A DNA stretch of 64,000 bases from Candidatus Wolfebacteria bacterium (GCA_024654025.1 JANLIR010000007.1:421-64420), one strand, 5' to 3'; numbered from the stretch's first letter, positions 13,811 through 64,000 are shown. The notes: generated by a model from the letters alone, not told the origin. Numbers and translations are program-made.

Positions 13811-13811
13811 C

Positions 13812-15044: not shown

Positions 15045-15077
15045 ATAATAATATATGTTAAAATAAATTTAATAAAT

Positions 15078-15209: not shown

Positions 15210-15231
15210 ATAAAATTAATTATTAAATAGT

Positions 15232-16788: not shown

Positions 16789-16793
16789 GCGCG

Positions 16794-17507
16794 ATGTTAA
16801 TAGAGACAAAAGGGTTGAAAAAAATTTACTCGATTGACGGATCGGAAACTCCGGCCGTAAACGGAATCAACCTTGAAATAAAGGAGGGTGAATTTGTGGC
16901 GATTATAGGGCCTTCGGGGTCGGGCAAGTCAACGTTGCTTCAGATTTTGGGTTGTTTAGACCGGCCGACGGGCGGAGAATATTTTTTTGACGGGAAAGAG
17001 ATAGAAAAATATTCGGACGACGAATTAGCGCATTTGCGCAATAAAAAGTTCGGATTTGTTTTTCAGTCATTTAATCTTTTGGGGAGATTATCGGTTTTAG
17101 AAAACGTAGAATTGCCTTTAATTTACGCGGGCATTCCGGAATTAAAACGCAGAGAAATGGCCGTTAAGGTTATAGGTTCGGTAGGATTATCCGATAGGGT
17201 TGATTTTGAAACCATGCGGCTTTCAGGAGGCCAGAAGCAGAGAGTCGCTATCGCGCGAGCTTTAGTTAATGAACCGAGAATTATTTTCGCGGACGAACCG
17301 ACGGGCAATTTAGATTCAAAATCAGGAGAAATTATTTTAGAATTTTTCGAAAAACTTCATGAAGACGGGCATACAATCGTTTTGGTCACTCATGAGACAT
17401 ATTTGGCGGAATCAGCCGAAAGGATAATATATCTTAAAGACGGGTTGATTGAGAGAGAAGAAATCGTTAATCACAAGTCCTTTAGAGAAAATAAATTTTC
17501 TAAATAA
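16794..17507 (+). CDS. ABC transporter ATP-binding protein (MacB/LolD-type)
   Basis: Walker [10 protein letters not shown], signature [15 protein letters not shown], Walker [13 protein letters not shown]. Confidence 0.9.
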
Positions 17508-17516
17508 GTATTTTTT

Positions 17517-22855: not shown

Positions 22856-22856
22856 A

Positions 22857-22997
22857 CCCGGTATTACAACTTCGATTATTTTTGGGTTAATTCTCGAAAT
22901 TGAAAATTAGTTAATATTTTTTGTTTTTTACCCAATATTGTTTATTCTAAAATCCTCAAAAATTTTATAGAGAATTTGTCGAAGTTGTAATACTGGG
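22857..22997. mobile_element. MITE-like palindromic element, family 2 (single copy)
   Basis: 19-bp TIRs CCCGGTATTACAACTTCGA ... TCGAAGTTGTAATACTGGG (18/19 complementary) exactly filling the intergenic gap; flanked by TCATA/TCATA 5-bp direct repeats. Confidence 0.65.
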
Positions 22998-25262: not shown

Positions 25263-25282
25263 GTTTGATAATTCTCAATAAA

Positions 25283-27079: not shown

Positions 27080-27119
27080 TGTCAGAAAATTAACGTACAA
27101 AAATCCAAAAACTTAAAAA

Positions 27120-28181
27120 TTATTTTATTTTCAATCCTTGCGTTACCGAATATATCGGGGTGATTATCGAAAGCGCCACAAAGCCGATAAGCACGCCCAT
27201 GACAATTATAAGAAGCGGTTCTAAAACGCTAGACAGATTTTTAGTAACATCGTCCACGTCATTTTCGTAAAATTCGGAAAGATAAAGCAAGGTTTCGCTT
27301 AAGTTTCCGGTTTTTTCGCCGATTGAAATCATTTCTCCGACCATCGGAGGGAAAAGATCCGGCCGGCCGATTAAGAATCGAGAAATTTCTTCGCCGCGGG
27401 AAACTCCGGTTGCTATTTTGCCGATTTGCTCTTTGTAAATAAGATTAGCGGTGGTTGTCGACGTGATGGTTATGGCTTCAATCACTTTTATGTCGCTTCG
27501 AAGAAGAAGGCCTAATGTCCGGCAGAAGTTTGCTATGTTGTAGTGTTTTGATAATCGTCCAGCCAAAGGCAAAATCAGCAAAAAACGGGTGGCGGCATAT
27601 TTAACTATTCTTATTTTTAAAATCAGCCAAACGAAAATTATAAAAATTATGATTCCGATAATAACGTAAAATCCGTAAGCGACTAAAAAATTGCTGACCG
27701 CGATTAAGATTCGCGTTGTAATCGGAAGCGTCATTTTCAAGCTTTTGAAAACCGGAAGAATTTTAGGAAAAATATAAACAGTCAAAAATCCAACGATGCC
27801 CAAAGTAGAAATGCCGATTATTACCGGATAAATAAGGGCGCCCTTTATTTTTTTATTCAAGTTTTGGTTTTTTTGGAGTTCTTCGGCCAAGTAATTGAGG
27901 TTTTCGTAAAGTATTCCACTGGCCTCGCCGACTCTGATGACGTTTATAAATAATTCGCCGAAAACGTTTTTGAATTTTTCAAGCCCGGTTGATAAAAATT
28001 GGCCATTGGAAACATCGTCAACCAGTTCGGTAAGAATTTTTTTCATTGTTTTGGAAGTGGCCTGTTTTTTTAACAGTTGCAAGCTGTCGACAATGGGCAT
28101 TCCGGTTTTCACCATTATGGAAAGGTGCTTGGCAAAAATTATTTTTTCCTGATTGGAAACTCTAAAAAATATATTATTCAT
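27120..28181 (-). CDS. pilC: type IV pilus assembly platform protein PilC (T2SS F domain)
   Basis: two T2SSF repeats, 3 TM; 'ISIGEKTGNLSETL'. Confidence 0.85.
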   Translation of the reverse strand: MNNIFFRVSNQEKIIFAKHLSIMVKTGMPIVDSLQLLKKQATSKTMKKILTELVDDVSNGQFLSTGLEKFKNVFGELFINVIRVGEASGILYENLNYLAEELQKNQNLNKKIKGALIYPVIIGISTLGIVGFLTVYIFPKILPVFKSLKMTLPITTRILIAVSNFLVAYGFYVIIGIIIFIIFVWLILKIRIVKYAATRFLLILPLAGRLSKHYNIANFCRTLGLLLRSDIKVIEAITITSTTTANLIYKEQIGKIATGVSRGEEISRFLIGRPDLFPPMVGEMISIGEKTGNLSETLLYLSEFYENDVDDVTKNLSSVLEPLLIIVMGVLIGFVALSIITPIYSVTQGLKIK

Positions 28182-28184
28182 ATG

Positions 28185-29402
28185 TTATTCATGGATAACT
28201 CTTAGCACTTCTTCTATTGTGGTTATGCCTTCGATGGCTTTTTTAAATCCGTCTTCGATCATTGAAGTCATGCCGTTTTTTTCAGCTAAATGTTTGATTT
28301 CAGTGGCATCGGCTTTTCTAACGATAGCCGCCCTCATTTCGTCGTCTATTTCCATAACTTCGTGTATTCCGACGCGGCCTCTATAGCCAGAGCCGCTGCA
28401 ATTTTCACATCCTTTGCCCTGATAAAATTTTTTAGATTTGTAAAGAGTTTCAACCGGAAATGTTCCCATTAGCCCTTCCAGATCGTTTATTGTTACTTTT
28501 TTTTCAAATTTGCATTCGACACAAATTCGTCTGACCAGTCTTTGACCGATGGCGACGTTCACCGTGGAGGCGATTAAAAATGGTTCGACTTTCATATCGA
28601 TAAGCCGCGGTAATGTTGTCGGCGCGTCGTTGGTGTGGATGGTAGATAAAAGCAAATGGCCGGTTAAAGCGGCGTTAACCGCAATAGCAGCGGTTTCTTC
28701 GTCTCTGATTTCGCCGACCATAACGATATTCGGATCTTGCCTTAAAATAGAACGAAGTCCGTTGGCAAAAGTTAAGCCGGTTCTCGCGTTGACTTGGATT
28801 TGTTCGAGACCTTCAATCGCGTATTCTATCGGGTCTTCGATGGTGATAATGGAAACGTCTTTAGTGTTGAGAGTTTTTAAAATCGTGTAAAGAGTCGTTG
28901 TTTTGCCGGAGCCGGTGGGGCCGGTTGCTAAAATCATTCCGTACGGTTTTTTCATATTCCGTTCTATTTTTTCAATATCTTTGGGCGCGAATCCTAAACT
29001 GTCCAGAGTGAATTTTTCGGCTTTTTCCGAAAGAAGGCGCATAACGCAATCCTCGCCGTAAAAAGTCGGCGCTAAGGAAACGCGGATGTCCACGAAGCCG
29101 CCGTTTTTAAATTTCAAACGGAAACGGCCGTCTTGCGCCGCCTGGTGTTCGTCGGTCCGAAGCCCTGAGAGGACTTTGACGCGGGTGATGACTTCGGATT
29201 GGATTTCTTTAGGTAAAATAAACGAGTCGTTTAAAATGCCGTCAATTCTAAGCCGCACTCTGACTCTTTTTTCTTCAGGATCAACGTGAATATCGGAAGC
29301 GCCGGCTTTGTACGCGTATTCAATAAGAGAATCAACCAAGCTGATAATTGAAATCCCGGCGCCGCGTTGTAATTCTTCTTCAACTTTTGAAAAGGGAGCC
29401 AT
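28185..29402 (-). CDS. pilB: type IV pilus assembly ATPase PilB/GspE (short form)
   Basis: Walker A GPTGSGKTTT, Asp box, His box 'TGHLLLSTIHTNDA', tetra-Cys motif CVEC...CENC. Confidence 0.85.
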   Translation of the reverse strand: MAPFSKVEEELQRGAGISIISLVDSLIEYAYKAGASDIHVDPEEKRVRVRLRIDGILNDSFILPKEIQSEVITRVKVLSGLRTDEHQAAQDGRFRLKFKNGGFVDIRVSLAPTFYGEDCVMRLLSEKAEKFTLDSLGFAPKDIEKIERNMKKPYGMILATGPTGSGKTTTLYTILKTLNTKDVSIITIEDPIEYAIEGLEQIQVNARTGLTFANGLRSILRQDPNIVMVGEIRDEETAAIAVNAALTGHLLLSTIHTNDAPTTLPRLIDMKVEPFLIASTVNVAIGQRLVRRICVECKFEKKVTINDLEGLMGTFPVETLYKSKKFYQGKGCENCSGSGYRGRVGIHEVMEIDDEMRAAIVRKADATEIKHLAEKNGMTSMIEDGFKKAIEGITTIEEVLRVIHE

Positions 29403-43731: not shown

Positions 43732-45234
43732 ATGGAAAAAATTAAAAAGATATTAAAATTTTTAAATCCTCAGCCCGCGATTGGCGGATTGGAAATAAGC
43801 GATTCCTATTTGCGTTTTGTTTTAATCAAGGAAAAAAAGGTTGATTTTTTTTCATTAAAACTTCCGCCCTCCATCGTGGAAAACGGCAAGGTTAAAAATC
43901 GCGACGCTTTGCGTCTGATGCTTTTGAATCTCCACGCTAAAATAACACCCAAAAAAAAGAAAAAAATATATGCGGTTGTAAGTGTTTCAGACGGCAATAT
44001 TTATTCCTCGCTTTTAAGTCTTCCGGCAATAGCCTCAAGCGGAATGGACGAAGCCGCCAAATTAAATTTGCAAATGGCTTCGCCTGTTGATTTTGAAAGC
44101 GTTTACAGCGATTGGCAATTAATAGGGGAAAAAGAATTAAGCGGCGGAAACCAGCTGGAAATTTTCGGAGCTTTTATTTCAAAGACTACCGTTAATGAAT
44201 TTGAGTCGGTAATCGAAGAAGCTGGTTTTGTAACTGCCGCTGTTGAGTTTCCGGCGCTTTCGCTTTCAAGAGTCATAGTTAAATTAGGTGAAAAAATTGC
44301 TAAAGAAAAAACCTATCTTTTTTTAAGGGTTAGCGGAGACGGATTGACATACGGAATTGTTAAAAACGGCAATCTATATTTTGCGCATTTTGTGGCATGG
44401 CTCTCGGCTTATGGAACAGAAAAAAAGATTAGTTCGGACTCCTTTAAAAAATTAATTATTTCCGAGACTAGAAAAGTTTTGAATTTTCATGAAAATCACA
44501 TTGGCGGGCAGATCGAAAAGATTTTAGTTATTACTCCCAGTATGATTGATGATATTTTAAGCGCGCTTGCCGAAGGAGCGCCAAATATAAAATCCGAAAC
44601 TCTCTCTCTTGAGCAATTTAAAGAATTAGCGATTAGCTGGTACAGCGTGCTGGGAGTAGCGCTTCGCGGATTAGTGCCTCGTCCCCAAGATAATATTGTT
44701 TCTTTGTCGAGTGACGATACCGATGTTAAGTTTGGAAATTATCAAACTATCGGTTTTATAAGAATTTGGAGAAATATTTCATTCGCGATTCTTGCTTTTG
44801 TTTTACTGGTTTTTATCAGTTTAGATGTTTTTTTAAGTTCTAATTCTAATAATTTGCAAAAACAGCTGGGCGCGTTGAGTTTAAATCCTAATAGCCAAAA
44901 AATATCCGAATTGACCCAGCAAGCCGCAGCATTCAATGAAAAAGTTGAATTAATAAGTAGCGCGTATTCTAATAAATCTTATTGGTCACCGGTTTTCGAC
45001 GCGCTTATTGAAAAGCTCGGGAGCGACATTACAATAAAAAGATTTTATCTTTCTTCTGCTGGTTCCCCGATTGTTATAACGGGCGAAGCGCCAAGCGAGG
45101 AAAGAGTGTCGGCTTTTGGAGAGGATCTTAAAAAAGACTCAAGATTTTCCGATGTTCAGATTCCTCTGTCGTCAATTAAAGAGATTTCCAAAAACGCCTT
45201 TATTTTTAACTTAATTTTTAAGGCTAATTTTTAA
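43732..45234 (+). CDS. pilM: type IV pilus assembly protein PilM fused to PilN-like C-terminal domain
   Basis: actin-like ATPase fold N-terminus (PilM/FtsA-like), internal TM helix then PilN-like periplasmic region. Confidence 0.6.
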   Translation: MEKIKKILKFLNPQPAIGGLEISDSYLRFVLIKEKKVDFFSLKLPPSIVENGKVKNRDALRLMLLNLHAKITPKKKKKIYAVVSVSDGNIYSSLLSLPAIASSGMDEAAKLNLQMASPVDFESVYSDWQLIGEKELSGGNQLEIFGAFISKTTVNEFESVIEEAGFVTAAVEFPALSLSRVIVKLGEKIAKEKTYLFLRVSGDGLTYGIVKNGNLYFAHFVAWLSAYGTEKKISSDSFKKLIISETRKVLNFHENHIGGQIEKILVITPSMIDDILSALAEGAPNIKSETLSLEQFKELAISWYSVLGVALRGLVPRPQDNIVSLSSDDTDVKFGNYQTIGFIRIWRNISFAILAFVLLVFISLDVFLSSNSNNLQKQLGALSLNPNSQKISELTQQAAAFNEKVELISSAYSNKSYWSPVFDALIEKLGSDITIKRFYLSSAGSPIVITGEAPSEERVSAFGEDLKKDSRFSDVQIPLSSIKEISKNAFIFNLIFKANF

Positions 45235-49637: not shown

Positions 49638-49653
49638 ATTCTCACTATTTTTG

Positions 49654-49742
49654 CGGTGGGGGTGAGATTTGAACTCACGATGCCCTTGCGAGCATACCAC
49701 ATTTCGAGTGTGGCGCCTTAAACCGGACTCAGCCACCCCACC
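49654..49742 (-). tRNA. tRNA-Ser (anticodon CGA)
   Basis: revcomp: GGTGGGGTGGCTGAGTCCGG...CCACACTCGAAATGTGG (anticodon CGA) long variable arm, T-loop GAGTTCAAATCTCAC, acceptor CCCCACC. Confidence 0.75.
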
Positions 49743-49756
49743 ACTATCTTTGTATG

Positions 49757-49828
49757 TGCCCTCGCGAGGAATCGGACCTCGATCCGCACGTTAGGAGTGT
49801 GCTATTCTATCCGTTGAACTACGAGGGC
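49757..49828 (-). tRNA. tRNA-Arg (anticodon CCU)
   Basis: revcomp: GCCCTCGTAGTTCAACGGATAGAA...CACACTCCTAACGTG (anticodon CCT), T-arm CGAGGTCCGATTCCTCG, acceptor CGAGGGC-A. Confidence 0.65.
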
Positions 49829-49839
49829 AATGAAAATAG

Positions 49840-49889
49840 ATTATATTTTTTATCAAAAACTTGCAAGGCATTAAAAGTTTCGTTATTAT
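49840..49889. promoter_or_regulatory. back-to-back divergent tRNA promoters sharing a palindromic -35 (CTTGCAAG)
   Basis: plus: TTGCAA-17-TATTAT toward tRNA-Ala(GGC); minus: TTGCAA-15-TATAAT toward tRNA-Arg/tRNA-Ser. Confidence 0.5.
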
Positions 49890-49944
49890 AAAATCGCTCC
49901 AGCGTTAATAGTCACAAGTTAAAAGTTATTAGTTATTTAATAAT

Positions 49945-50018
49945 GGGCCGTTAGCTCATTTGGCTAGAGCGCTACTATGGCATAGTAGAGGCGACCGGTT
50001 CGAATCCGGTACGGTCCA
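49945..50018 (+). tRNA. tRNA-Ala (anticodon GGC)
   Basis: acceptor GGGCCGT/ACGGTCC with G3·U70, anticodon stem CTACT/AGTAG loop aTGGCat, T-loop GGTTCGAATCC. Confidence 0.75.
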
Positions 50019-50033
50019 CGAGTAAAGCTTAAT

Positions 50034-50502: not shown

Positions 50503-50619
50503 GTTGGAAATTTTTTGGTTGCCCCAATACTCTCGCTTTAGGCGAGAGAGTCGAGACATAAGGCTCCTCGACTAACACCTGTGTCCGCAAAGCGGACATC
50601 GATCAATTTTCGAATTTAA

Positions 50620-52150
<1,531 letters not shown>

Positions 52151-52382
52151 ATGCTAAAGCTCAAGCTTATATAGCGAAGAAAATCTAACAACCAGTACTG
52201 ATTATTAGAAATCCTTCGCCAGCTTGAAGTTCAGCATTTTTGTCCTTCGACAAACTCAGGACAATCCTGAGTAGCATCGAAGGATTGGGACAACCAAAAA
52301 AGTTCCAACTTTTTTTGGTTTTAATAAGCATCGATTGTTAAAGTCCTTTCCATGTTCAGCTCATTTTTTTCAGAGCCTACTT

Positions 52383-52409
52383 ATTTTACTTGACGGAAAG
52401 GGATTGTCA
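52383..52409 (-). promoter_or_regulatory. putative rRNA promoter
   Basis: minus strand GTTGACA-16-TAAAAT ~225 nt upstream of the 16S 5' end; the -35 is contiguous with the MITE copy 3 terminus. Confidence 0.45.
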
Positions 52410-52546
52410 ACCCCGCACCTTTAAAAGATATTAACGCCTCGCCGCTTTATTTAGTATCGATATTTATTTAAAATATGGGTTTTTACTAATGCCGATTTTT
52501 ACTAAAAGGCGTTTTTTAAAAAGCGCAATCTTTTAAAGGTGCGGGG
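52410..52546. mobile_element. MITE-like palindromic element, family 1, copy 3
   Basis: CCCCGCACCTTTAAAAGAT ... ATCTTTTAAAGGTGCGGGG, flanked by TCAA/TCAA; interior ~85% identical to copy 2. Confidence 0.65.
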
Positions 52547-52726
52547 TCAACCCTTTTCGATTAAATGTGGATAAGTCTATTTGAGTTCTTGCGGCCTATG
52601 CTATAATAAAAACAATATCGAAACCGCAGTATTTTGTTTCGATTTTAAATAATTTGAAAAGGTCGAGATGAAAATCTACAAGTCGATTAATTTTTTACAG
52701 AAATAAAAAAGGAATAAAAATAATTC

Positions 52727-53302
52727 ATGAAAAAAGGATTTACATTGCTTGAGCTTTTAATTGTTATTGGTATTATCGCTATTTTAGCGTCAGTTGTCGC
52801 TTTGGTGTTAAACCCGGCTGAACTTTTGAGGCAAGCCAGAGACGGCCAGAGAATTTCCGATTTCGATACATTAAGGACCGCGATTAATTATCACTTGTCA
52901 ACCGGAACCAGTCCCGACACCAATCTTGGAGGCACTGGCTTGGCATACAGAAGAAGTCTTGCTGCCGCGAATTGTCCTTTTGCTTCTTCTTCCGCGTGTA
53001 CGGCAATTACAACCACTGCGTCAACTACCATTGATGGAACTGGGTGGGTTAACGTGAACTTTAATGATGTTGGAGGCGGCACGTCTCCTTTGACAATTCT
53101 TCCAATAGACCCGACTAACACTTTAACCTATTACTATACTTACGCTGGGGACGATTCACCTAACCTGTTTGAGCTTAATAGCAGATTGGAAAGCACCAAA
53201 TACAGGATTAAAATGACGCAAGACGGAGGAAATCAAAATGGCTGTTCTACTTATACCGAACCCACCTGTTACTACGAAGTCGGTACTTCAGTGACTCTCT
53301 AA
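52727..53302 (+). CDS. type IV pilin
   Basis: 'KKGFTLLELLIVIGIIAILASVV' class III signal peptide, 191 aa. Confidence 0.8.
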   Translation: MKKGFTLLELLIVIGIIAILASVVALVLNPAELLRQARDGQRISDFDTLRTAINYHLSTGTSPDTNLGGTGLAYRRSLAAANCPFASSSACTAITTTASTTIDGTGWVNVNFNDVGGGTSPLTILPIDPTNTLTYYYTYAGDDSPNLFELNSRLESTKYRIKMTQDGGNQNGCSTYTEPTCYYEVGTSVTL

Positions 53303-53320
53303 TCGGAAGGATATTTAGTA

Positions 53321-53929
53321 ATGGTTTTTTATCTTTCGCTTACAATTTTGATTTTAGCTTTAGGAGCGCAGCTAACCCTGCGCTCCTTTGGTAATAGATC
53401 AACAAACAACAAATCTGTACGAATATACGAATGGATTTTCTATGGCGCAATCATTTTAATTTTCGCTAATTCTTTTTATTTGTCATATTCGCAGTATAAG
53501 ATTTGGAAATACGGACCTCTTTCGGAATTTACAAAATTTTTTCTGCCACCGCATCAAAGTATAAATTATTTTATTGGTTATTCTCTATTTAATTTTTTTG
53601 CAACCTATCTGGTCTCATTAGTATTTGCATTTCTTTTTTTAAAAGCCGTTAAATATTACAATAAGAAATTTGAAGAAAAGTTTTTTTATCCTGAGGAGTA
53701 TTATTTAGGCGCGCTGGCGATTTTTTTATCAGGCTTTCCGGGGATTTTTATTTATATTATTTTTCTTTTCCTCGCCTCTGCTCTCGGCTCGCTAATATTG
53801 AATAAATTTTCCACTCTAAAAGGCGAGCGAGTATCATTTTATTATTTGTGGATACCAGTTGCGATTTTTGTTATAATAATAAGTAGGTATCTCCAGCAAT
53901 TGCCAATATGGCAATTGCTCAAACTCTAA
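53321..53929 (+). CDS. polytopic membrane protein of unknown function (not an A24 prepilin peptidase by motif)
   Basis: 6-7 TM helices; the A24 motifs (catalytic Asp pair, GxGDxK) are absent. Confidence 0.4.
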   Translation: MVFYLSLTILILALGAQLTLRSFGNRSTNNKSVRIYEWIFYGAIILIFANSFYLSYSQYKIWKYGPLSEFTKFFLPPHQSINYFIGYSLFNFFATYLVSLVFAFLFLKAVKYYNKKFEEKFFYPEEYYLGALAIFLSGFPGIFIYIIFLFLASALGSLILNKFSTLKGERVSFYYLWIPVAIFVIIISRYLQQLPIWQLLKL

Positions 53930-53987
53930 TTTATAAACAATAAATATCTATAAATATCGCGAAGCAAGTATCAATGAATATATTTTA

Positions 53988-55700
53988 ATGTTAACAATTC
54001 CTTCTCAAAAACTGAAAGATTTTTTGGTAAAAGACGGTTTAATAACCTCGGATAATTTTGATGTAATAGAAAAAGAAGCCAGCCGGCTTAATCAAAACTT
54101 GTCCGAAGTTCTTGTTTCTAGAGGCGTTCTTACAACAGAATATCTTTATTCGCTCCTTAGCAATTATTTGGGCGTTGAACCGGTTAATTTAAGCGCTAAT
54201 CCTATAGACGAAAATGTTTTAATGAAAATTAGCGAAAAGCTCGCTCGTCAAAAAAAAGTCGTGCTTTTTAAAGAAGAGGCCGGGGGCGTTTATGACGCCG
54301 CTATGGAAGATCCTAGTGATTTGAAAACCATAGATTTTTTAGAAAATTCTTTAAACGTAAAAATAAAACCCTTTTTGGCAAGGCCGGCGGATCTGGAAAG
54401 GGGATTTGCCATTTATAACCGCCAGTCATCCGCGGACTTTCAAAAAATAATCGAGGAAAATATCAAAACCTCGCTTTCTATCAAAGAGGACAAAATTGAA
54501 AAGATTGCCCGGGAAATGCCCATTGTGGCGATTGTTGAAAATTTTATTGCTTACGCGTCCGCGACTCGAGCTTCGGATATTCACATTGAAGCGCTGGAGG
54601 ATATGGTTTTGGTTAGATTTCGGATAGACGGCGTTCTTCATGAAATCGCTAAAATTCCCAAAGATGTCCACCCGGCGATTTTGGCGAGAGTTAAACTTTT
54701 GGCGGCGCTTAAACTTGACGAACATTATAAACCGCAAGACGGCAGATTTCGTTATCAGTTATCGGAAGCGGTTTTAGATATGCGCGTTTCGATTATCCCG
54801 ACTTTCTACGGCGAAAAAATTGTTTTGCGTTTACTTCCGGCCGCGCAGAAACCGCTTGCTTTGGAAGAAGTTGGCATGCTTGAAGATACCGTAAAAGTTG
54901 TTAAAGAAAATATTGTTAAAACTTACGGAATGATTTTGGTTTGCGGTCCTACCGGTTCAGGGAAAACGACAACCATTTATTCGATTTTAAATATGCTAAA
55001 TAAGCCCGAAGTCAACATTGTTACAATTGAAGACCCGATAGAATACTCGGTTAAATATATTAACCAAACACAAGTAAATGTTTTAGCCGGAGTGACATTT
55101 GCCAATGGGTTAAGATCGATATTAAGACAGGATCCTAATATTATCGGTGTAGGCGAAATCCGCGATGAAGAAACAGCTGAAATCGCGGTTCACGCCGCTT
55201 TGACCGGACATTTAGTGCTTTCAAGTCTGCATACTAACGACGCGCCAACGACAATTCCGCGTTTAATTGATATGAAGATCCCGCCGTTTTTGGTCGCGGC
55301 GGTTTTAAATTTAATAATCGCCCAAAGATTGGTTCGGAAAATTTGCTCAAACTGTATGGAATCTTATTCTACCCCGCCCGATCTTTTAAAAAATCTTGAA
55401 AAATTAAAATCCGAATCCAATTTATCAGCCGAATATCAAATACCTAAAACGTTATTTAAGGGAAAGGGTTGTAATGTTTGCGCCAATACCGGCTATCGGG
55501 GAAGAATGGGTATTTATGAAGTTATGCAAATAGACAACGAAGTCAGGGCGGAGATGGCAAAAACCGATTTTTCTTTGACGAATTTAACTAATCTAGTTCG
55601 TAAAAAAGGTATGATAACAATGTTTGAGGACGGTTTGCGTAAAGCCGCGCTGGGATTGACTTCGGTCGAGGAGGTAATGAGGGTTATAAGAGAGGAATAA
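53988..55700 (+). CDS. pilB: type IV pilus assembly ATPase PilB/GspE (full length with N-terminal domain)
   Basis: Walker A GPTGSGKTTT, 'TGHLVLSSLHTNDA', tetra-Cys CSNC...CNVC; paralog of 28185-29402. Confidence 0.9.
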   Translation: MLTIPSQKLKDFLVKDGLITSDNFDVIEKEASRLNQNLSEVLVSRGVLTTEYLYSLLSNYLGVEPVNLSANPIDENVLMKISEKLARQKKVVLFKEEAGGVYDAAMEDPSDLKTIDFLENSLNVKIKPFLARPADLERGFAIYNRQSSADFQKIIEENIKTSLSIKEDKIEKIAREMPIVAIVENFIAYASATRASDIHIEALEDMVLVRFRIDGVLHEIAKIPKDVHPAILARVKLLAALKLDEHYKPQDGRFRYQLSEAVLDMRVSIIPTFYGEKIVLRLLPAAQKPLALEEVGMLEDTVKVVKENIVKTYGMILVCGPTGSGKTTTIYSILNMLNKPEVNIVTIEDPIEYSVKYINQTQVNVLAGVTFANGLRSILRQDPNIIGVGEIRDEETAEIAVHAALTGHLVLSSLHTNDAPTTIPRLIDMKIPPFLVAAVLNLIIAQRLVRKICSNCMESYSTPPDLLKNLEKLKSESNLSAEYQIPKTLFKGKGCNVCANTGYRGRMGIYEVMQIDNEVRAEMAKTDFSLTNLTNLVRKKGMITMFEDGLRKAALGLTSVEEVMRVIREE

Positions 55701-55704
55701 ATAT

Positions 55705-56913
55705 ATGAAATTTTCTTATATAGCCGCGCAACAAAACGGAAAAGTTATTGAGGGAGAAATTGAAGCTGTTTCAACCGCCGAAGTTTTAGCGTCTTTGGCA
55801 GCCCAGGGCTTAAAGCCAATTTCGCTTAAGAAACAAAGCATCGCCACCGCCTCAAAAAAACGTTTATTCGGAGGTTCTATAAATGTCGCCGATAAAATAT
55901 TTATTACAAAATATTTATCGTTGATGTTGAAAATCGGAACCGATCTTTTTAAGGCTATTGATATTTTAATCAATGATTTTGACAAGCCAGCGGTTCGCGA
56001 CCTACTTTTTGAAATAAAAAGCAATCTTGAAAAAGGCCAGCCTTTTTATCTTGCTTTTGCCAAATATCCAAAACAATTTTCACAAGTTTTTATTAACTTG
56101 ATAAGAGCCGGGGAGATTTCGGGAAATTTAGATAAATCGCTTGAAGGATTAAGCGATAATCTTCAGCGTGAACAGGAACTGCGCTCTCAAATTCAGGCGG
56201 CTGTAATTTACCCGATAATACTTATAATCGTTGCCACGCTGGTTATTTTCTTTTTGGTTGGATTCGCGCTGCCGAGAATAGGAAAAATTTTTACCTCCGG
56301 CGATATTGATCCGCCTCTTTTTTCAAAAATTGTTTTTGCCGTTTCCGCTTTTGTTAATCAATATTTTGTTTTTTTCTTGGTATTTATTGTCGGCTCAATT
56401 GTGACGTTCTGGGTGCTTTTTAAGAAAAACCTATTTTTCAGAAGACTTATATACCGAGCTGGCAAAAGACTTCCTCTTATAGGAAAAGTTTTAAAAATCT
56501 TGGCGGTTCAGCGTTTTTGCGCTGTTTTCTCTTCCCTCCTCACGTCAGGGCTTCCTATTATAGAGGCCTTGGAAACCACGGCTAATGCAGTGGGCGATGA
56601 AGAAATGAAAGAAAGTATTTTAAGAGTTGCCAATGAGGGAATTGCCAAAGGCCTGACCGTGGGAGAAGCGTTTAGAAAAGAAGTTATATTCCCAAAAACC
56701 GTGGTAAATCTTATTGCCATATCGGAAAAAAGCGGCCACATTGAAAGTATTTTGCTTACTTTAGCTACTTTCTACGAATCAGAAGTAAAAACTTCGATAA
56801 AAACACTCGTGTCGTTTCTTGAACCCATTCTTTTGTTAGGCATCGGATTAATCGTCGGCGTTATCGCTTTATCGGTAATGGTGCCGGTGTATCAATTGGT
56901 GGGGAAGATATAA
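55705..56913 (+). CDS. pilC: type IV pilus platform protein PilC (T2SS F)
   Basis: two T2SSF repeats; paralog of 27120-28181. Confidence 0.85.
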   Translation: MKFSYIAAQQNGKVIEGEIEAVSTAEVLASLAAQGLKPISLKKQSIATASKKRLFGGSINVADKIFITKYLSLMLKIGTDLFKAIDILINDFDKPAVRDLLFEIKSNLEKGQPFYLAFAKYPKQFSQVFINLIRAGEISGNLDKSLEGLSDNLQREQELRSQIQAAVIYPIILIIVATLVIFFLVGFALPRIGKIFTSGDIDPPLFSKIVFAVSAFVNQYFVFFLVFIVGSIVTFWVLFKKNLFFRRLIYRAGKRLPLIGKVLKILAVQRFCAVFSSLLTSGLPIIEALETTANAVGDEEMKESILRVANEGIAKGLTVGEAFRKEVIFPKTVVNLIAISEKSGHIESILLTLATFYESEVKTSIKTLVSFLEPILLLGIGLIVGVIALSVMVPVYQLVGKI

Positions 56914-57098
56914 TTATGCTAAGAAAAATATCGGAGGATCGACGCGCCCTTTTGGAGCTTCTTATATGGAACAAGAAATTTTAAAAGATTGGCAGAAAAA
57001 GGCCATAGAATTTATAGCTTCGGCCAAAGAAGTTGAATAATTTTTTGTAAATTTAAACCCGCTAAACTCGCCAACGCGCCAAATAAATAATAAATTTA

Positions 57099-58691
57099 AT
57101 GCCGCAAATTTATAAAAAATTAAAAGGATTCACTTTGGTTGAAATAATTATCGCTGTTTTTATACTGGCTTTTTTGACGATTCTTGTTGTGGTTCTTTTG
57201 GATCCAGCGGATTTTTTCCCGGGCGCAAGAGACACGCGTAGGATTTCAGATTTGCAGGCGATTGATTCGGCTTTAAGTATATATAAAACAGAGGTAGGCG
57301 CGTTTTTTAAATCGTCTTCTGTTGCGACTGATCCGTCAAACGCCGTTATTGGTTTAGTGCGTCAGGACTGTACGGGCTATTCAAATTGTTTTACTTCTTT
57401 ATTTGCTTGGCAGGCGGCGTTTGGCGGGATAAATTTTGGCGCTTGCGCTCAAGGCGATTTAGTTTGCGCTAATAAATCTGCGGTGGCGAAAATTGACGGA
57501 ACTTGGACAAATCCAGATACAAGCCGTTTAAATATTGACGGATGGACAACGAGTCCTTCTAACTATATAAGAATTTATACTGCGCAAGCGGCGCGGCATA
57601 ATGGAAAGTGGAACACTAATAAATACCGACTTGAGGTCAGCGGGCAAAATCCAATCGGAATTAACGAAGATTATGTGCGTATTGAAGGATTACAAATAAG
57701 AATGCCCTCTCCAGATTATCAAGCAATTACAAACGGGTATAGCGGCGCGGATATTAGAATAAATAATAATATAATTCGCGGCGCGGGCGGTGTTTCTAAT
57801 TCAACCTTCGGGCTTTATCTTGATGGCAATATTAATACCGAAATAAAAATATGGAATAACATAATTTATGATTTGGGCAGCGGTACTTCTCTGTGCGTTT
57901 TTTCCTTTGCTAACCAAACCACCTACGCGTATAATAATACTTGTGTTGGAGCCGGGTTTGGTTTTTACCGAAATACGACTGGTTCCGGTAAGATGTCCGC
58001 TATAAATAATATTGCCCAAAACACAACCGACGGATTTAACGGAGTTGATTCTTCTTCTGATTATAATATTTCCGATCTTTCAAATGATGCTCAGGGGACA
58101 CATTCCAAGAATTCCACCACGGTGTTGTTTGTTTCTACTTCAACCCCCGATTATCACTTGTCTTTAAATGACTTAAACGCTAAGGGAGCCGGGATGAAAG
58201 GATGTTCTTCCTCGTCAATTATGACCTTTCAAGACGATATTGATGGGCAACCAAGAGGCGGCAGCTGGGACATTGGGGCTGACCAAGCTGTCCCTGATTA
58301 CAAAACGGTTTTTACCTCTCTTCCTGATAATAATTCTGCTTGTTGCGCCAGCTATTCTTTGCCTTCTCTTCCTTCGGATTGGACGTACGGCTGCGTTGTT
58401 TCTACGGGTCTTCAACAGGTAAATAGCGGAGGATGGATCCCCTTGGATTTTACTAACATTGCGGCAAACGCCATGTCTTTTCTGTCTATTGACCCGGGTA
58501 ATTCTACTTCAAGCGGGCAATATTACACTTTTGTTTCTGACGGAAAAAAATGGGAATTAACTTCCATATTAGAATCCGATAAAAATAAGGGCGTGGATAA
58601 GATAGGCGGTAAAGACGGCGGACAGTATGCTAATATATTAGAAATAGGGTCTAATTTAACCTTAACGCCCTCAAATGTTAAAAATAGATAA
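57099..58691 (+). CDS. large pilin-like protein with parallel beta-helix repeats
   Basis: 'KGFTLVEIIIAVFILAFL' prepilin motif; repeated N-x-I-x-G/N beta-helix rungs. Confidence 0.55.
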   Translation: MPQIYKKLKGFTLVEIIIAVFILAFLTILVVVLLDPADFFPGARDTRRISDLQAIDSALSIYKTEVGAFFKSSSVATDPSNAVIGLVRQDCTGYSNCFTSLFAWQAAFGGINFGACAQGDLVCANKSAVAKIDGTWTNPDTSRLNIDGWTTSPSNYIRIYTAQAARHNGKWNTNKYRLEVSGQNPIGINEDYVRIEGLQIRMPSPDYQAITNGYSGADIRINNNIIRGAGGVSNSTFGLYLDGNINTEIKIWNNIIYDLGSGTSLCVFSFANQTTYAYNNTCVGAGFGFYRNTTGSGKMSAINNIAQNTTDGFNGVDSSSDYNISDLSNDAQGTHSKNSTTVLFVSTSTPDYHLSLNDLNAKGAGMKGCSSSSIMTFQDDIDGQPRGGSWDIGADQAVPDYKTVFTSLPDNNSACCASYSLPSLPSDWTYGCVVSTGLQQVNSGGWIPLDFTNIAANAMSFLSIDPGNSTSSGQYYTFVSDGKKWELTSILESDKNKGVDKIGGKDGGQYANILEIGSNLTLTPSNVKNR

Positions 58692-60351
58692 TATAAATAA
58701 TATTGGGAAAAGAGAGATAAAAGTATTTTTTTCGTTTTTATTAACTATATTTTTTGGCTTTGGTTTGTTTTTTTTCTCTCGCGCAGACGCGGCTTACGCG
58801 CCACCCGCAGGAATACCTGCCCCGATTTTTGGAATTAACGAAGTAGCGCCAAGCACAGCCATAAAATGTTCTAGTTGGCCATCTGCTTTTTCTCCAGAGT
58901 GTTATTACATTGATAATACAAGTCCGGCCGCAACAGATATTGGGAATACGAATGGATATCCGAATAGGCCTAGGGCGACGATACCGACGACCTATGCCGC
59001 CGGTTCTTACGCAGAGGTTCGCGGAGGACCGTACAATAGTATTACGATTACATTCAACGGCACGTCGGCTAATCCGATATTTTTCCGCGGTCCTTCCGCG
59101 TTGGATCGGACGACAATTCATGGGGTTGGGCTTACGGGAAGTTATGCAATCGTGGAGTATATTAATTCCGATTTGAATGGCGGCAATGTAGGGTTTTTAT
59201 ATCCGGCGTCCTATATTTCTTTCCGAAATAATACCGTACAGGGAACAGGAGTTCTACTTACTGGAAATCAATCCGCCTTATCGTTAAGCGGCGGCACGGC
59301 CGGACACAATAATAATTTAGTAGTCTACAACAACACCATATGGAATCATGGCCAATGGAATTATAACACCACCGCCGATGTTCACGGGATAAAACCTCGG
59401 AACGATGTCGATGAGGCGTGGATTTTAGAAAATACAATTTACCATGTGCAGGGCGATTCGATTCAGACGGGCGAGGCGACTCTCGTCGGACAAAGTTACC
59501 CGACTAAGATATACATCGGAAAGAATATTATGTATGAGAATAAGGAAAATTGTATTGATATAAAAGGCGGAACGGACATTATCGTATCGGAAAATATCTG
59601 CCACGATATGTTAAACGCTTATGGGGACGACCAGATGGAAGGAATTGTTACTCATAATAGCGCGAACTGGACATGGTATATCAATAATACAATATGGAAC
59701 TCCGGGTTTGGAATTTATACCTCTGGTAGTGCAAATCAGTACGCGGTTGGAAACGTAATTTACAGCATCCAGGGGAGTTCCAATCCGTCTTCGTTCTATG
59801 ACTACGGTACGGGAATTATTTTTATCGGCGCCAACCCCGGGGCAATCGTCAATAATACGATAGACAACACTCAACATGGATATTCCGAGGCAGGAGGCGG
59901 CGTGGTGAATATGGCAAACAACATCATTTCAAATCGCAGCCTCGCGGCGGGCTACGACCAGATGATAGAGAACACGACCGGCAACACTTTAGACTACACG
60001 CTGACTAGCGGCAACACCAAGACTCGCTGGGGCGGGGGAACTTATGCCACGGCGGCGGCCTTTAATTCCGCTACCGGGCAGGGCGCGCATCATTGGGAGA
60101 CTAATCCGCTATTTATGAATACCGCAGGCAACGACTACCGGCTGACAGCGTCTTCTCCGGCAATAAACAACGGAGTTCTCGCGCAAGTATACGCTACGTT
60201 TCAGAACCGTTATGGTATTTCAATCGCGAGAGATATTAACGGAAATATTCGCCCGTCGGGAACAGCTTGGGACATCGGCGCGTATGAATATGTTTCAGGC
60301 GCTCCCGACACCACTCCTCCCGCCGCGCCAACAGGACTGTCAGTAAATTAA
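58675..60351 (+). CDS. secreted right-handed parallel beta-helix repeat protein
   Basis: signal/TM N-terminus; beta-helix rungs; C-terminus 'WDIGAYEYVSGAPDTTPPAAPTGLSVN'. Confidence 0.55.
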   Translation: MLKIDNINNIGKREIKVFFSFLLTIFFGFGLFFFSRADAAYAPPAGIPAPIFGINEVAPSTAIKCSSWPSAFSPECYYIDNTSPAATDIGNTNGYPNRPRATIPTTYAAGSYAEVRGGPYNSITITFNGTSANPIFFRGPSALDRTTIHGVGLTGSYAIVEYINSDLNGGNVGFLYPASYISFRNNTVQGTGVLLTGNQSALSLSGGTAGHNNNLVVYNNTIWNHGQWNYNTTADVHGIKPRNDVDEAWILENTIYHVQGDSIQTGEATLVGQSYPTKIYIGKNIMYENKENCIDIKGGTDIIVSENICHDMLNAYGDDQMEGIVTHNSANWTWYINNTIWNSGFGIYTSGSANQYAVGNVIYSIQGSSNPSSFYDYGTGIIFIGANPGAIVNNTIDNTQHGYSEAGGGVVNMANNIISNRSLAAGYDQMIENTTGNTLDYTLTSGNTKTRWGGGTYATAAAFNSATGQGAHHWETNPLFMNTAGNDYRLTASSPAINNGVLAQVYATFQNRYGISIARDINGNIRPSGTAWDIGAYEYVSGAPDTTPPAAPTGLSVN

Positions 60352-60367
60352 AAATGTAAAAATCAAA

Positions 60368-62008
60368 ATGAAAAACTATAATATAAAATCAAAAATTATT
60401 TTTCTCGCGATATTGTTTTTCGGAATTTTTGGTTTGGTGGAAATTTCCAGAGCCGCTTGGACTCCGCCGATAGGCATTCCTGTGCCGCCGTTTCCTTCAG
60501 ATTTAGATGTGGTGCGCCCCGCGCCTCCAATTCCCTGGACTTCGGAAGTGGCGGGAAATTATTACATTCAGCGCGACCAGGCGGGATGTTCCGATTCTCG
60601 CGCCTACGGGGCCCCCTCTGCGGCTAGGTGTTCTCTTCCGTCTTCTCCGCCTGCAGGATCTAAAGTATTTTTACACGGGGTATATTCAACATATCCAACT
60701 ATTTCGTGGACGGGAACGGCCAATAGTCCAATTTGGTTAATAGCGTATGATAATTCGAATAAACCAAATATGTCTAATGGCTACGCTGTAAATAGTATCT
60801 ATACTATTTTAGACGGGATTTCTTCTTCGATGACCGTTTCTGGCGGCATAGGCGTGGCTGGACGCTACACAATGTTGCGTAATTTTACGTTTACAAACTC
60901 CGCTGACGGATCGAACTATTCAGGCGTTGCAGTAGGCGGCGGTGGAAATAATATTGTGATATACAAAGCAACAGTTGGTCCTTTGGGGAATTGGCAATAT
61001 GCGGGCGCTGGCGATATCGATACTCATGGCGGAAACGTAAGCGGGAATGCTAATTATATTTGGTTTCTTGATTCTACTTGGTTTCACGCTCATGGCGATG
61101 GAATACAGATAGAAAATGGTTCTGGAAACGCTGCTGGAGCGCATCATATTTATATCGGCAGGAATCTTGCTTACGAAAACTATCAGTCAGGGTTTTGGAC
61201 TAAAAACGCCACTGACGTAATTATGTCTCAGAACGAAGTGTGGGGCATGCATGTAATCCCAACTAATGCTAGCGTTGGAGAAGCGATGGGGGGTCAATAC
61301 GACCCTAAGTACGTTTGGTTTATTGCTAACAAACTTCATGATTCGTCAATTGGTCTAAAAATGTCTGGCGGAAACAATGGTGGCGGTGGTCCGTGGTATG
61401 CCATTGGAAACGTGATTTATAATATTTATCACAGCACTGCTGCGTGTAATCCATGGGGAATGGGCGCGTTGTCTTATAGAAATGAAGGCGGGCTATATGC
61501 TTATTTCAATACAATAGATAACGTAGATTCTTTTATATCTGTGATTCCTGCCAATTCAGGCGAGTTTCGTGATAATATTTTTACAAACCAGTATACTCCT
61601 GCTGGATGTCCAGCGCTGAATGATGACGGGTACGGTACTTATACTATCGACTATAATCTTTGGGATAACGATAATATTATTACAAAATATAATGGGACAA
61701 TTCGTACAACGTTATCTTCATTTGCCTCCGCGACGGGGCAGGAGACGCATCGGGTAGTTGGGAGCCCGCTGCTAAACGTCGACCGCTCGATATCAAGCAA
61801 CTCTCCCGCGATTGACACTGCAAATCCTACGGAGGAAGCGGTATTTGCTACATTTCAGTCTCGGTACGGAGTTGATATTCGAAAAGATTTCGCAGGGTCA
61901 ACTCGTCCCAGCGGCGCGCGGTGGGACATTGGCGCGTATGAATACGTTTCCGGAGCTCCGGTTGATACTACTCCTCCCGCCGCGCCAAGCGGACTAGTGG
62001 TTAATTAA
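60368..62008 (+). CDS. secreted parallel beta-helix repeat protein (paralog of 58675-60351)
   Basis: same architecture; C-terminus 'WDIGAYEYVSGAPVDTTPPAAPSGLVVN'. Confidence 0.55.
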   Translation: MKNYNIKSKIIFLAILFFGIFGLVEISRAAWTPPIGIPVPPFPSDLDVVRPAPPIPWTSEVAGNYYIQRDQAGCSDSRAYGAPSAARCSLPSSPPAGSKVFLHGVYSTYPTISWTGTANSPIWLIAYDNSNKPNMSNGYAVNSIYTILDGISSSMTVSGGIGVAGRYTMLRNFTFTNSADGSNYSGVAVGGGGNNIVIYKATVGPLGNWQYAGAGDIDTHGGNVSGNANYIWFLDSTWFHAHGDGIQIENGSGNAAGAHHIYIGRNLAYENYQSGFWTKNATDVIMSQNEVWGMHVIPTNASVGEAMGGQYDPKYVWFIANKLHDSSIGLKMSGGNNGGGGPWYAIGNVIYNIYHSTAACNPWGMGALSYRNEGGLYAYFNTIDNVDSFISVIPANSGEFRDNIFTNQYTPAGCPALNDDGYGTYTIDYNLWDNDNIITKYNGTIRTTLSSFASATGQETHRVVGSPLLNVDRSISSNSPAIDTANPTEEAVFATFQSRYGVDIRKDFAGSTRPSGARWDIGAYEYVSGAPVDTTPPAAPSGLVVN

Positions 62009-62038
62009 ATTTATTAATATCCGTGTTATAATTTATTT

Positions 62039-63727
62039 ATGCGTAGAATTTTAACAATATTATTTATTTTGGGACTGGCTTTAATTATTTTCCCATTAAA
62101 TAAAACTAATGCGGCGCGTATTTGGTCGTCTGGGCTTGAATTGGCAAGTAGCACAGCCGAAGGGCTTGCTAATTCAGGGACAGGGCCTTCTATGGTTTTG
62201 GCAACTTCTACCGTAAGGAGCGGCTCTTATTCTTTGAAGACTCCGTCTTTAATTTCGGGTTCGTCTACGATTTCGCGTTATGCATTTGCAGCAAGTAATT
62301 CTACTGGCCCGTTTTATTTTAGATTCAATTTTTATATTTCTAATTTGCCGTCGGCCACAACAACTATTTGGGCTGCCGAATCCGGGTCTCCTTATTATAA
62401 ACGAGCCAGTATCGAAATTAATAACAGCGGCATCCTGGCTTTAGTATCACAGGAAGCGACAAGGATTGGTTATAGCGCCGTCCTCGCGACAAGCACCTGG
62501 TACAGAATAGAAGTTTTGTTTGACATAAGCGGAGCCGCGGGGAGTCATATAACAAGATCTAGATTAAACGGAGTTGAGTTTGCTTCATCAACTACTTTAA
62601 CTATTGCTGCGGGCGTCCAAAATTATTCTGTGGGCGGAAATATTTTAAGTGAAAGCCAGTCAGGCGGGCTGTGGTATTTCGATGATTTGGCGTTTAACGA
62701 TAATACGGGTTCATACCAAACAAGTTATCCTGGCGAAGGAAAGATTGTACATTTAAAACCGAACGCCGCTGGGGATAATGCTATGGGCACTTCCACTCCC
62801 TCGGGCCAATCCGCGTTTTCTGTTGTAAATGAATTACCGCCTAATAATGACACTAATTATTGGGCGTTAACAACCGATAACGATATTCTTGACGTGAATT
62901 TAGATTCTTTTGCTTCAACGAGCATAAAATCAATTGACACCATAAACCTAGTTAATGTCGGAATTATTACAAGAAATTCCGCCGCGGGAACTTCGCAATT
63001 TATTTTAAGAGTTAAATCGCAATCTAGCGGAACAGTAGCCACAGGGACAACGATGGATTGGAGTTTGTCTTCTTCTTGGTACCCGATAACTCTGCTGTCT
63101 TCTTATGTAAATCCTCAGGCAGGAGGGAGTTGGACGCCCGCGTTACTTGAAAACGCCCAAGCGGGTATAATAGCAACTATTGCGACCCCGAATGTTTTTG
63201 TAACTTCTATGTGGGCCTTAGTTGAATATATTTCCGTTCCTTTTGCTCCGTCTTCATTAGGGCCGTCAAACAAAGTAGACGGCTCCTGGTCTACTTCTAC
63301 CCAGCCAACATTGTCTTTCACTCAATCAGACTCTGATGCTTCTAGCACCATTAAATATACCATTCAAATCTCCACATCTTCTTCTTTTGCTTCCCAAGCT
63401 GTTGATTATGAATCAGCTCTCTTGGCTCAAGGTTCAACTTCATTTACCGTTGGCCAGGCTGCTGGAGGAGGAGCATACACAGTAGGTACGTCATCACAAA
63501 CATTACCTGATGGACAATACTACTGGAGAGTGATGTCAACTAATAATAATAATGTGACTTCATCATACACAACCGCCAATAGCGGAGCAGTTGCTTTTGG
63601 AATAGATACAACCGCTCCCACAGGAACAATAGCTTCATCAACATATGGAACCATCACCAGTTCATCAATAATCATCAACAGGCCTTCTACTTCAACGATC
63701 ATAGAAAGTGGTTCAGGACTTTATTAA
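62039..63727 (+). pseudogene. secreted S/T-rich lectin/FN3-like protein interrupted by an in-frame TAA; the reading frame continues open to the window end
   Basis: after the TAA at 63725-63727 the same frame stays open and encodes an FN3-like segment (…NTQYTYDVRFIDLMGNISSYGATSSKYTLTP…). Confidence 0.4.
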
Positions 63728-64000
63728 TGGCAAGTACGAAGAAACTCCACCACTACCTTATCAGCTGTTTCCACCTCCACTGCCACTACCTCTGACTCAT
63801 CTCTAACTTCCAACACCCAATACACCTATGATGTCAGATTCATAGATTTAATGGGAAACATCTCTTCCTATGGAGCTACATCTTCCAAATACACTCTTAC
63901 TCCTGATCCCACTAACTTCTCCGCCACCCCAAGCCAAACCTCCCAAACTTCAATTGCTTTATCAGTAGATTCTTTCAATAATGCGTCTTCCTCCTCATCG

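Follow-up and report, generated by a model that had tools for sequence, protein, structure and literature searches.

Described docking systems and the locus in outline

Bacteria of the candidate phyla radiation (CPR, or Patescibacteria) are thought to live attached to host cells, and to our knowledge the organisation of their surface proteins is largely unknown. Here we describe part of a 64,000-nucleotide stretch ("the window") of a metagenome-assembled genome (MAG) of Candidatus Wolfebacteria, a member of this group (GCA_024654025.1, JANLIR010000007.1:421-64420; locus tags NUV83_). From position 52727 onwards the region consists of two joined units, a minimal type IV filament core and a cassette of surface-protein genes that recurs in Wolfebacteria-like genomes. 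In the window the cassette encodes a pilin split by a beta-helix (P5), two Sec-secreted proteins that end in a common C-terminal tag (P6 and P7), and a large protein with fibronectin type III (FN3) domains (P8). Several described systems come close to parts of this arrangement. In chaperone-usher pili and in the Pam pili of CPR, for which donor-strand complementation has been documented (bioRxiv 10.64898/2026.03.03.709456), an incomplete immunoglobulin (Ig)-like or FN3-like fold is completed by a strand of another polypeptide. In the cohesin-dockerin cellulosome, secreted enzymes carry a C-terminal docking element and the scaffolds are anchored to the wall. Finally, modular pilins, an established class, combine a pilin module with a further one that has no specific tie to pili (Raynaud et al. 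2021, PMC8179133).

The docking arrangement that we propose below for P6 and P7 would share with chaperone-usher and Pam pili the completion of an unfinished fold by a foreign strand. It would differ from them in that enzymes of many folds would donate a C-terminal strand A, which the N-terminal domain of a wall-anchored stalk would accept; neither a chaperone nor an usher is seen. The likeness to the cellulosome extends to some candidate acceptors that end in Dockerin_1 and to one locus (L026) in which a cohesin protein adjoins. However, the tag of P6 and P7 is a single beta-strand of 14 residues rather than a calcium-binding dockerin of ~60 amino acids, and neither protein has a dockerin.

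A C-terminal tag in fixed register on unrelated secreted proteins

The tag reads DTTPPAAPxGLxVx-COOH, with P6 and P7 ending in the version DTTPPAAPxGLxVN-stop. In P6 it is DTTPPAAPTGLSVN followed by the stop codon (60307-60351, + strand) and comprises an FN3 linker and strand A; in P7 it is DTTPPAAPSGLVVN and stop (61964-62008, + strand). The first-pass annotation had noticed that these two paralogs share an ending, and the alignment bears this out, with 25 of 27 positions identical from WDIGAYEYVSGAP to the stop in proteins that are 34% identical overall. The sole similarity between the two genes at the DNA level is an 88-nt stretch at this tail (82% identical), and in the monomer model of P6 the tail is predicted to be disordered (pLDDT 62 and 44).

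The same annotation had suggested that the shared ending might be a docking or sorting tag and that it should be sought in other proteins. The motif does behave like a tag. Loci that had been picked without regard to it, 1.27 Mb in all, contain 22 occurrences within open reading frames (ORFs), and 21 of these are followed by exactly one residue and a stop codon. A metagenome scan with a degenerate DNA pattern of the tail and stop codon, in which third codon positions were left free, returned at least 106 matches with true stop codons. Among the matches listed, masking of the tail sorts 64 tagged ORFs into 30 or more homology groups; almost all of these ORFs have Sec-type leaders (judged by eye), they often stand in tandem with up to four per locus, and their contigs range in GC content from 0.37 to 0.56. 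Thus, the motif is a modular C-terminal tag with a fixed register, found on at least 30 unrelated secreted families and far better conserved than the catalytic domains that precede it.

Individual proteins illustrate the same point. Proteins that are 33-45% identical to P6 overall have a near-identical DTTPPxxPxGLxV tail, and 54 of 61 members of the P6 family end no more than 35 residues past a DIGAYE motif, many of them with P..P..L.[VI] close to the last residue. In L085 and in L001/L214, unrelated tagged proteins come straight after the P5 orthologues. The one in L085 has 459 aa, is not a beta-helix and ends in PPAAPTGLTVN. Loci L001 and L214 encode a 739-aa Kelch/FN3 protein ending in APAAPTGLSVN, a 689-aa protein ending in PPAAPQGLIIQ and a 595-aa beta-helix protein ending in PPANPTGLSVI. 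The genome of the window itself has a second contig, with a P5 paralog, that encodes the tagged protein P0122, ending in TTPPAAPQGLTVN.

These distributions bear on the possibility that the tail is a functionless remnant or linker left by truncation of enzyme-FN3 fusions, its similarity being kept by gene conversion. Some family members do have a complete FN3 domain at the position of the tag (P0011 and those of L039 and L045), and the DNA similarity of the P6 and P7 tails and the predicted disorder would also fit a remnant. Conversely, the register held in 21 of 22 cases, the spread over unrelated families and a wide range of GC content with third codon positions free in the pattern, and the near-identity of tails on otherwise divergent proteins all speak against it. 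We consider a remnant unlikely. Stop-codon readthrough was discarded as well: the stops of P6 and P7 are followed by the next gene's own start and signal peptide, and in locus L132 the downstream in-frame ORF begins with a transmembrane segment.

The tag directly follows a choice-of-anchor Q domain, which in P6 occupies aa 486-539 (NF041518, 33.7 bits against a cutoff of 25) and in P7 aa 475-526 (30.1 bits, same cutoff), so that both proteins belong to this class. Other family members carry type IX secretion system (T9SS) or dockerin-like sorting modules at this place; in Flavobacteriaceae homologues, the tag fills the slot of T9SS-like extensions of ~86 aa (judged by eye). This position, and the occurrence of the tag on many unrelated proteins of one genome, could mean that the tail is the recognition motif of a processing or sorting enzyme that attaches or cleaves its substrates in the manner of a sortase or exosortase. 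Yet the proteins end one residue past the motif, which leaves room for neither a hydrophobic segment nor a basic tail, the annotated neighbours in three tag-bearing loci include no gene resembling those of sortases or exosortases, and the Desulfopila homologue that lies beside an exosortase has a different tail. At 14 residues without a hydrophobic segment, the P6 and P7 tails are not LPXTG, PEP-CTERM, GlyGly-CTERM or T9SS C-terminal domain (CTD) signals, and unlike PEP-CTERM, LPXTG and T9SS CTD they have no transmembrane helix, basic tail or beta-sandwich CTD. A sortase-type reading was rejected for want of a transmembrane segment in the tail, and we judge recognition by a processing or sorting enzyme to be rather improbable.

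A search of the accessible literature returned no paper containing the motif strings and nothing relevant on docking by FN3 strand complementation. Tagged genes are also found under other taxonomic labels: a contig of a MAG labelled Smithella sp., a non-CPR lineage, has five of them in 20 kb (L055, 70-12272), and a single one is known from a Binatia locus (L040). Either the tag is not confined to CPR or the Smithella contig may be mis-binned.

The tag matches strand A of an FN3 subtype, the strand that candidate acceptors lack

The tag is identical in sequence to strand A of an FN3 subtype marked by NANTExDLAGY, together with the preceding linker, and breaks off at the A-B turn. Giant repeat proteins supplied 384 internal copies of this subtype, in which the consensus from -21 to -9 before strand B is DTTPPAAPTGLxA, continuing with TAGDGxVx and then LxW..N.E.DLAGY. 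The main difference from intact domains is that the tag has V or I where these mostly have A. It is not a complete FN3 domain, which has seven strands (PF00041).

Near arrays of tagged genes lie genes for proteins that carry the same subtype without this strand. Their mature N-terminus, after a signal peptide ending in AxA, reads G[ST]ATLSWNANTExDLAGY[KR]IYYG and so starts at strand B; together, tag and protein cover the whole subtype except the three-residue A-B turn. We refer to these proteins as candidate acceptors, and limit the term to those in which G[ST]AT directly follows the signal peptide. Behind the strand-A-less FN3 domain they have FN3 or Big_7 spacers and then PG_binding_1 or Dockerin_1, and their Pfam fn3 match begins at position 14-15 of the hidden Markov model rather than position 2. 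Across all loci examined, the subtype occurs seven times, every time at a mature N-terminus. Of 39 database proteins that have it close to the N-terminus, 37 are without strand A; the other two are truncated fragments. Of 70 tag-positive loci, 6 contain candidate acceptors, compared with none of 141 tag-negative loci (Fisher p = 0.001, uncorrected for lineage). Small transmembrane-anchored FN3 proteins of L214 (20194-20631) and L085 (10716-11060) were considered as acceptors and set aside, as they may keep a strand-A-like segment, NSLIPEIF.

The first-pass annotation had counted it against its reading if the motif were, in all family members, just the beginning of a truncated FN3 domain. The motif is literally such a beginning, but dismissal does not follow. 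The identity is better taken as a mechanistic clue, since precisely this start is missing from the FN3 domain of that subtype in partner proteins.

Gene order is consistent with a relation between tag and acceptors. The order pilin, tagged genes, P8-like gene, acceptors is found in L214, L085 and L139. In L214, the best relative of the window, a modular pilin is followed by a tagged beta-helix protein, a P8 orthologue with PG_binding_1, a small transmembrane-anchored FN3 protein and, as the fifth gene, an acceptor composed of signal peptide, strand-A-less FN3 and further FN3 repeats. The window has the same order up to P8, where the contig ends.

Donor and acceptor elements also meet in more compact forms. 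A 124-aa protein of L136 (4471-4842, - strand) consists of a signal peptide, a strand-A-less FN3 domain and the tag PPAAPTGLTVK-stop. Because the linker is too short to fold back across the FN3 domain, as we infer from FN3 geometry, head-to-tail assembly is suggested and this protein may be a self-polymerising unit. In L026, a Parcubacteria MAG locus, a cellulosome-like trio (15122-18114, - strand) lies beside three tagged genes. It encodes a 257-aa protein with a strand-A-less FN3 domain and a dockerin-like C-terminus, a 210-aa transmembrane-anchored cohesin protein (PF00963, E 4e-10), and a 524-aa protein with a cohesin-like region, FN3 and PG_binding_1.

A possible split-FN3 docking mechanism

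In the mechanism that we propose, P5 would be built into the filament through its pilin halves and would display its beta-helix there, as other modular pilins display their extra modules. P6 and P7 would be exported by Sec; at the surface, wall-anchored acceptors would hold them by taking up their C-terminal strand A, which would complete in trans the strand-A-less N-terminal FN3 domain of the acceptor; FN3 or Ig spacers and then PG_binding_1 or a dockerin would connect this domain to the wall. Overall, this would amount to a split-FN3, donor-strand docking system. The acceptor genes, which close the cassette in related genomes, would here lie past the end of the contig. The displayed enzymes would act on glycans, perhaps those of a host envelope. 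This combined reading, with P5 as a modular pilin and with P6 and P7 docked by strand complementation, seems to us quite possible from the sequences, if short of probable. For the narrower proposal that the tail is a previously undescribed docking tag, a free strand A that completes the strand-A-less FN3 domain of peptidoglycan-bound or dockerin-bearing stalks, our assessment is somewhat more reserved, and we offer it as tentative.

A number of observations weigh against this mechanism. The sequences of donor and acceptor are complementary and their genes syntenic, yet no acceptor gene was found inside the window, and the association between tag and acceptor carries the lineage reservation given above. 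Strand-A-less N-terminal FN3 domains are present in giant proteins from other phyla too (P0317 and P0318 among them), and therefore a first FN3 domain may not need strand A at all. When tag and acceptor were joined in a Pfam chimera test the result was marginal, with 23.7 versus 22.1 bits for one pair and no gain for the other. The Smithella-labelled contig combines its five tagged genes with no acceptor, and a search for any recurrent partner near its tag arrays found none. Contact between the cassette and pilB/pilC is seen only in this window. The enzymatic activity of P5, P6 and P7 is predicted entirely from fold similarity (TM score up to 0.55, 13% identity), and for P5 a fold search with the model gave zero matches at E<=0.001 and weak, generic pectate-lyase-like matches at E >= 6e-3. 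Because these fold matches are weak and generic, P5 was left unassigned to an enzyme family.

If split-FN3 docking is correct, CPR and possibly other phyla would display interchangeable secreted enzymes on their surface by a new and easily testable mechanism, which needs a 14-residue tag and a matching incomplete domain on wall-anchored stalks. Mini-proteins such as that of L136 would then polymerise head to tail. The system would be a natural split-domain analogue of cohesin-dockerin pairs and a compact natural tag/catcher pair, and would help to annotate many proteins now listed as "hypothetical" in which the tag or the acceptor domain occurs.

Linkage of the cassette to pilus genes

The first-pass annotation suggested that P6 to P8 are pilus-tip or pilus-displayed proteins of an appendage that degrades glycans or binds a host surface; in such a model the tag would dock them to P5 or elsewhere on the filament. 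The local gene order is in keeping with this: a P5-type pilin gene stands immediately before tagged genes in the window, in L085 and twice in L214, and in the window the cassette abuts pilB/pilC. More widely, P6 homologues seldom lie close to pilus genes. PilB or PilC is encoded within 10 kb of P6-family genes in only 2 of 78 species-level loci; among the matches listed from the metagenome scan, 46 tag-bearing loci are without pilin, PilB or PilC; and the P5 orthologues of L214 and L085 are not adjacent to pilB/pilC. Moreover, the tag matches an FN3 strand, whereas P5 has no FN3 domain to receive it. Display of P6 to P8 on the pilus is thus not supported by wider comparison and appears to us quite unlikely.

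The pilus genes might instead serve secretion. PilB, PilC, the pilin and P5 could form a pseudopilus piston, as in a type II secretion system (T2SS), to drive beta-helix proteins across the wall or S-layer after they have been exported by Sec and have folded; the tag would then be irrelevant or a secretion cue. Such a role has a precedent in a monoderm, since secretion of BsaC in Clostridium perfringens depends on the pilin PilA3 (bioRxiv 10.1101/2024.11.04.621531), and P6 and P7 are rigid folds of ~55 kDa encoded downstream of pilBC. However, the want of a conserved linkage to pilus genes tells equally against this explanation, a secretin and other T2SS-specific parts are not present, and the window has a second pilBC set with modular pilins of its own. 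We regard a secretion piston as very improbable.

P5 is a pilin split by a parallel beta-helix

P5 (57099-58691, + strand) is a modular type IV pilin of 530 aa, identified by its N_methyl motif, homology to the neighbouring pilin, an AlphaFold model and orthologues. Its leader (aa 1-10, MPQIYKKLKG, followed by FTLVE; N_methyl 24.7 bits against a cutoff of 21.2) is of class III: short, basic and ending in Gly, with a hydrophobic segment and Glu at +5. In the model, the alpha1 helix extends to about aa 72 (helix 13-72), and a parallel beta-helix follows at about aa 80-400 (57336-58298, + strand; pLDDT >90). The C-terminal half of the pilin is found at aa 433-522 (58395-58664, + strand), a region modelled at pLDDT <50 though homologous to the head of the neighbouring pilin. 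Residues 3-54 of that pilin align with P5 9-60 (E 2e-12) and residues 94-191 with P5 433-522 (E 1e-6). Because the neighbouring pilin aligns in two pieces, the beta-helix of ~340 aa must sit between alpha1 and the beta-sheet head. The first-pass description of a 530-aa prepilin fused to a pectate-lyase-like beta-helix is accordingly right as to leader and beta-helix, which is inserted within the pilin fold and not appended to the leader.

Full-length orthologues of P5 (P0078-P0082) are 49-61% identical, and L214 encodes an 867-aa modular pilin (13645-16248) with two tandem P5-like beta-helix inserts between the same pilin halves, the first 60 residues of which are near-identical to those of P5. 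The beta-helix by itself is common to hundreds of large surface proteins with LamG, FN3 or Ig domains. A profile search of the PDB with the P5 family gave zero matches.

With an N-terminal IPR012902 motif (N_methyl) and a parallel beta-helix as the non-pilus module, P5 has the composition of a modular pilin. We take IPR039448 to be the right-handed beta-helix entry. The architecture N_methyl/IPR012902 plus IPR039448 is listed for 3 proteins in the dataset of Raynaud et al. (PMC8179133), where many modular-pilin examples come from candidate phyla. Like the Streptococcus sanguinis modular pilins PilB and PilC described there, of which the former has a vWA and the latter a lectin module, P5 has a bulky module in addition to its class III signal peptide and pilin module. 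In those proteins the module is grafted through a short linker after a complete pilin, whereas the beta-helix of P5 separates alpha1 from the beta-sheet; P5 is, in addition, known from its sequence and a model. A domain within the pilin fold rather than appended to it is also a feature of GspK-type minor pseudopilins (PMC8179133), although GspK has an alpha-domain and belongs to the tip complex of a diderm T2SS, whereas P5 has a ~340-aa parallel beta-helix and GspI/GspJ partners are not evident. By analogy, P5 joins the modular pilins as a new member, unusual in that its module is inserted, and the earlier view of it as a pilin-borne module is upheld by the same analogy. The pilin fold can tolerate one or even two beta-helix inserts of this size, which widens the range of modular pilins.

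P6 and P7 are predicted to be glycan-active beta-helix proteins

P6 (58675-60351, + strand) is a Sec-secreted parallel beta-helix protein of 558 aa, modelled by AlphaFold at pLDDT 93, and P7 (60368-62008, + strand) is its paralog of 546 aa, also with a Sec signal peptide; the Sec-type signal peptides of P6, P7 and P8 were judged by eye from the sequence. In its fold, P6 comes closest to the lacto-N-biosidases of GH136, to lyases of the families PL6 and PL9 and to capsule depolymerases of phages (Foldseek E 2.6e-7 to 1e-4, TM score up to 0.55). P6 has the right-handed parallel beta-helix fold in common with these enzymes, but at 12-15% identity and with no Pfam family match. P6 and P7 are thus not assigned to PL6, PL9 or GH136, for which the PDB profile matches are weak and partial (E 1e-6 to 1e-3). 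Taken together, fold and genomic contexts make a glycan-active role a reasonable inference.

The P6 family spans many phyla, including Acidobacteriota, Planctomycetota, Gammaproteobacteria, Flavobacteriaceae and CPR, and a Moritella isolate. One homologue lies within a Desulfopila exopolysaccharide cluster. Another, P0004, is 44% identical to P6 and is encoded on a 36.8-kb phage-like contig (L087) with integrase, DNA polymerase A and Phage_stabilise, a context that suggests a tailspike or depolymerase relative within the family.

P8 is a large FN3 protein that runs off the window

P8 (62039-64000, + strand) is a large Sec-secreted surface protein in which ~400 unassigned N-terminal residues are followed by FN3-like repeats. 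It is 80% identical to an 878-aa protein of L001, and its orthologues end in the peptidoglycan-binding domain PG_binding_1. The N-terminal ~400 aa gave zero matches in Pfam or the PDB, and for this reason we count three consecutive beta-helix proteins, P5 to P7, where the first-pass annotation had four. Of the three further secreted beta-helix or lectin-like proteins that it placed after the prepilin, P6 and P7 are beta-helices, and neither this fold nor a lectin fold is shown for P8. Structure prediction, which it had named as a check, confirmed the beta-helix for P5 and P6.

The gene had been taken to end at 63727. The TAA at 63725-63727 is in frame within an FN3 domain, and the frame stays open to the end of the window. 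At this site the window reads TAT TAA TGG, whereas the orthologous copies in L001, L085 and L214 (two copies) read TAT or AAC, then CAA (Gln) and TGG. Recoding of TAA was considered and dropped; the codon is better read as a nonsense mutation (CAA>TAA) of the CAA present in all four orthologous copies, or as an error of sequencing.

The filament core and other features of the window

All eight ORFs that the first-pass annotation had placed between 52727 and 63960 were found where it put them, on the + strand. Its order of pilin, membrane protein, pilB and pilC is supported by Pfam and NCBIfam for all except the membrane protein. The core begins with a major type IV pilin of 191 aa (52727-53302, + strand; N_methyl 29.2 bits, TIGR02532), which has a class III signal peptide, MKKG before FTLLE. 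A polytopic membrane protein of 202 aa (53321-53929, + strand) follows, for which Pfam and NCBIfam scans gave zero matches. The PilB/GspE-type assembly ATPase (53988-55700, + strand) has an MshEN N-terminal domain (46 bits) and matches T2SSE with 401 bits; its score against TIGR02538, 518 bits, is under the equivalog cutoff of NCBIfam. The PilC/GspF platform protein (55705-56913, + strand) has two T2SSF stretches (176 bits) and matches GspF with 290 bits. ATPase, platform protein and major pilin encoded together identify machinery of the type IV pilus or T2SS-like kind. Because scores fall under the NCBIfam equivalog cutoffs, we did not assign it to a subtype (type IVa pilus, Com or T2SS).

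PilD, PilM/N/O and PilT are absent from 52727-64000, and no prepilin peptidase was identified among the scanned ORFs of the window. Some 7.5 kb upstream of this cluster, the C-terminal domain of a 500-aa ORF (43732-45234) resembles PilN (24.3 bits), and the product may be an accessory protein of the PilM/N type. A scan of 52100-64000 for promoters and terminators gave counts not above those in shuffled sequence, and operon boundaries could therefore not be drawn.

The earlier pilus set of the window (21380-29402, - strand) includes a T2SSE ATPase (28185-29402), a T2SSF protein (27120-28181) and a 605-aa prepilin (25283-27100) with CarboxypepD_reg and Ig-like modules. Next to these, a 754-aa ORF (22998-25262, - strand) has its N_methyl motif at residues 558-581, an odd position for a leader; its start may be miscalled, or it may be a fusion. 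A complete, solitary 16S rRNA gene lies at 50613-52150 on the - strand, close to tRNA genes at 49653-50019, and no 23S or 5S rRNA was detected across the whole window. Housekeeping genes of the window include those for UvrABC and PheT. At 9365-10645, a further secreted protein has a low-complexity N-terminal region that is strongly acidic and rich in Asp and Arg, followed by repeated FN3-like domains (Pur_ac_phosph_N-type and fn3).

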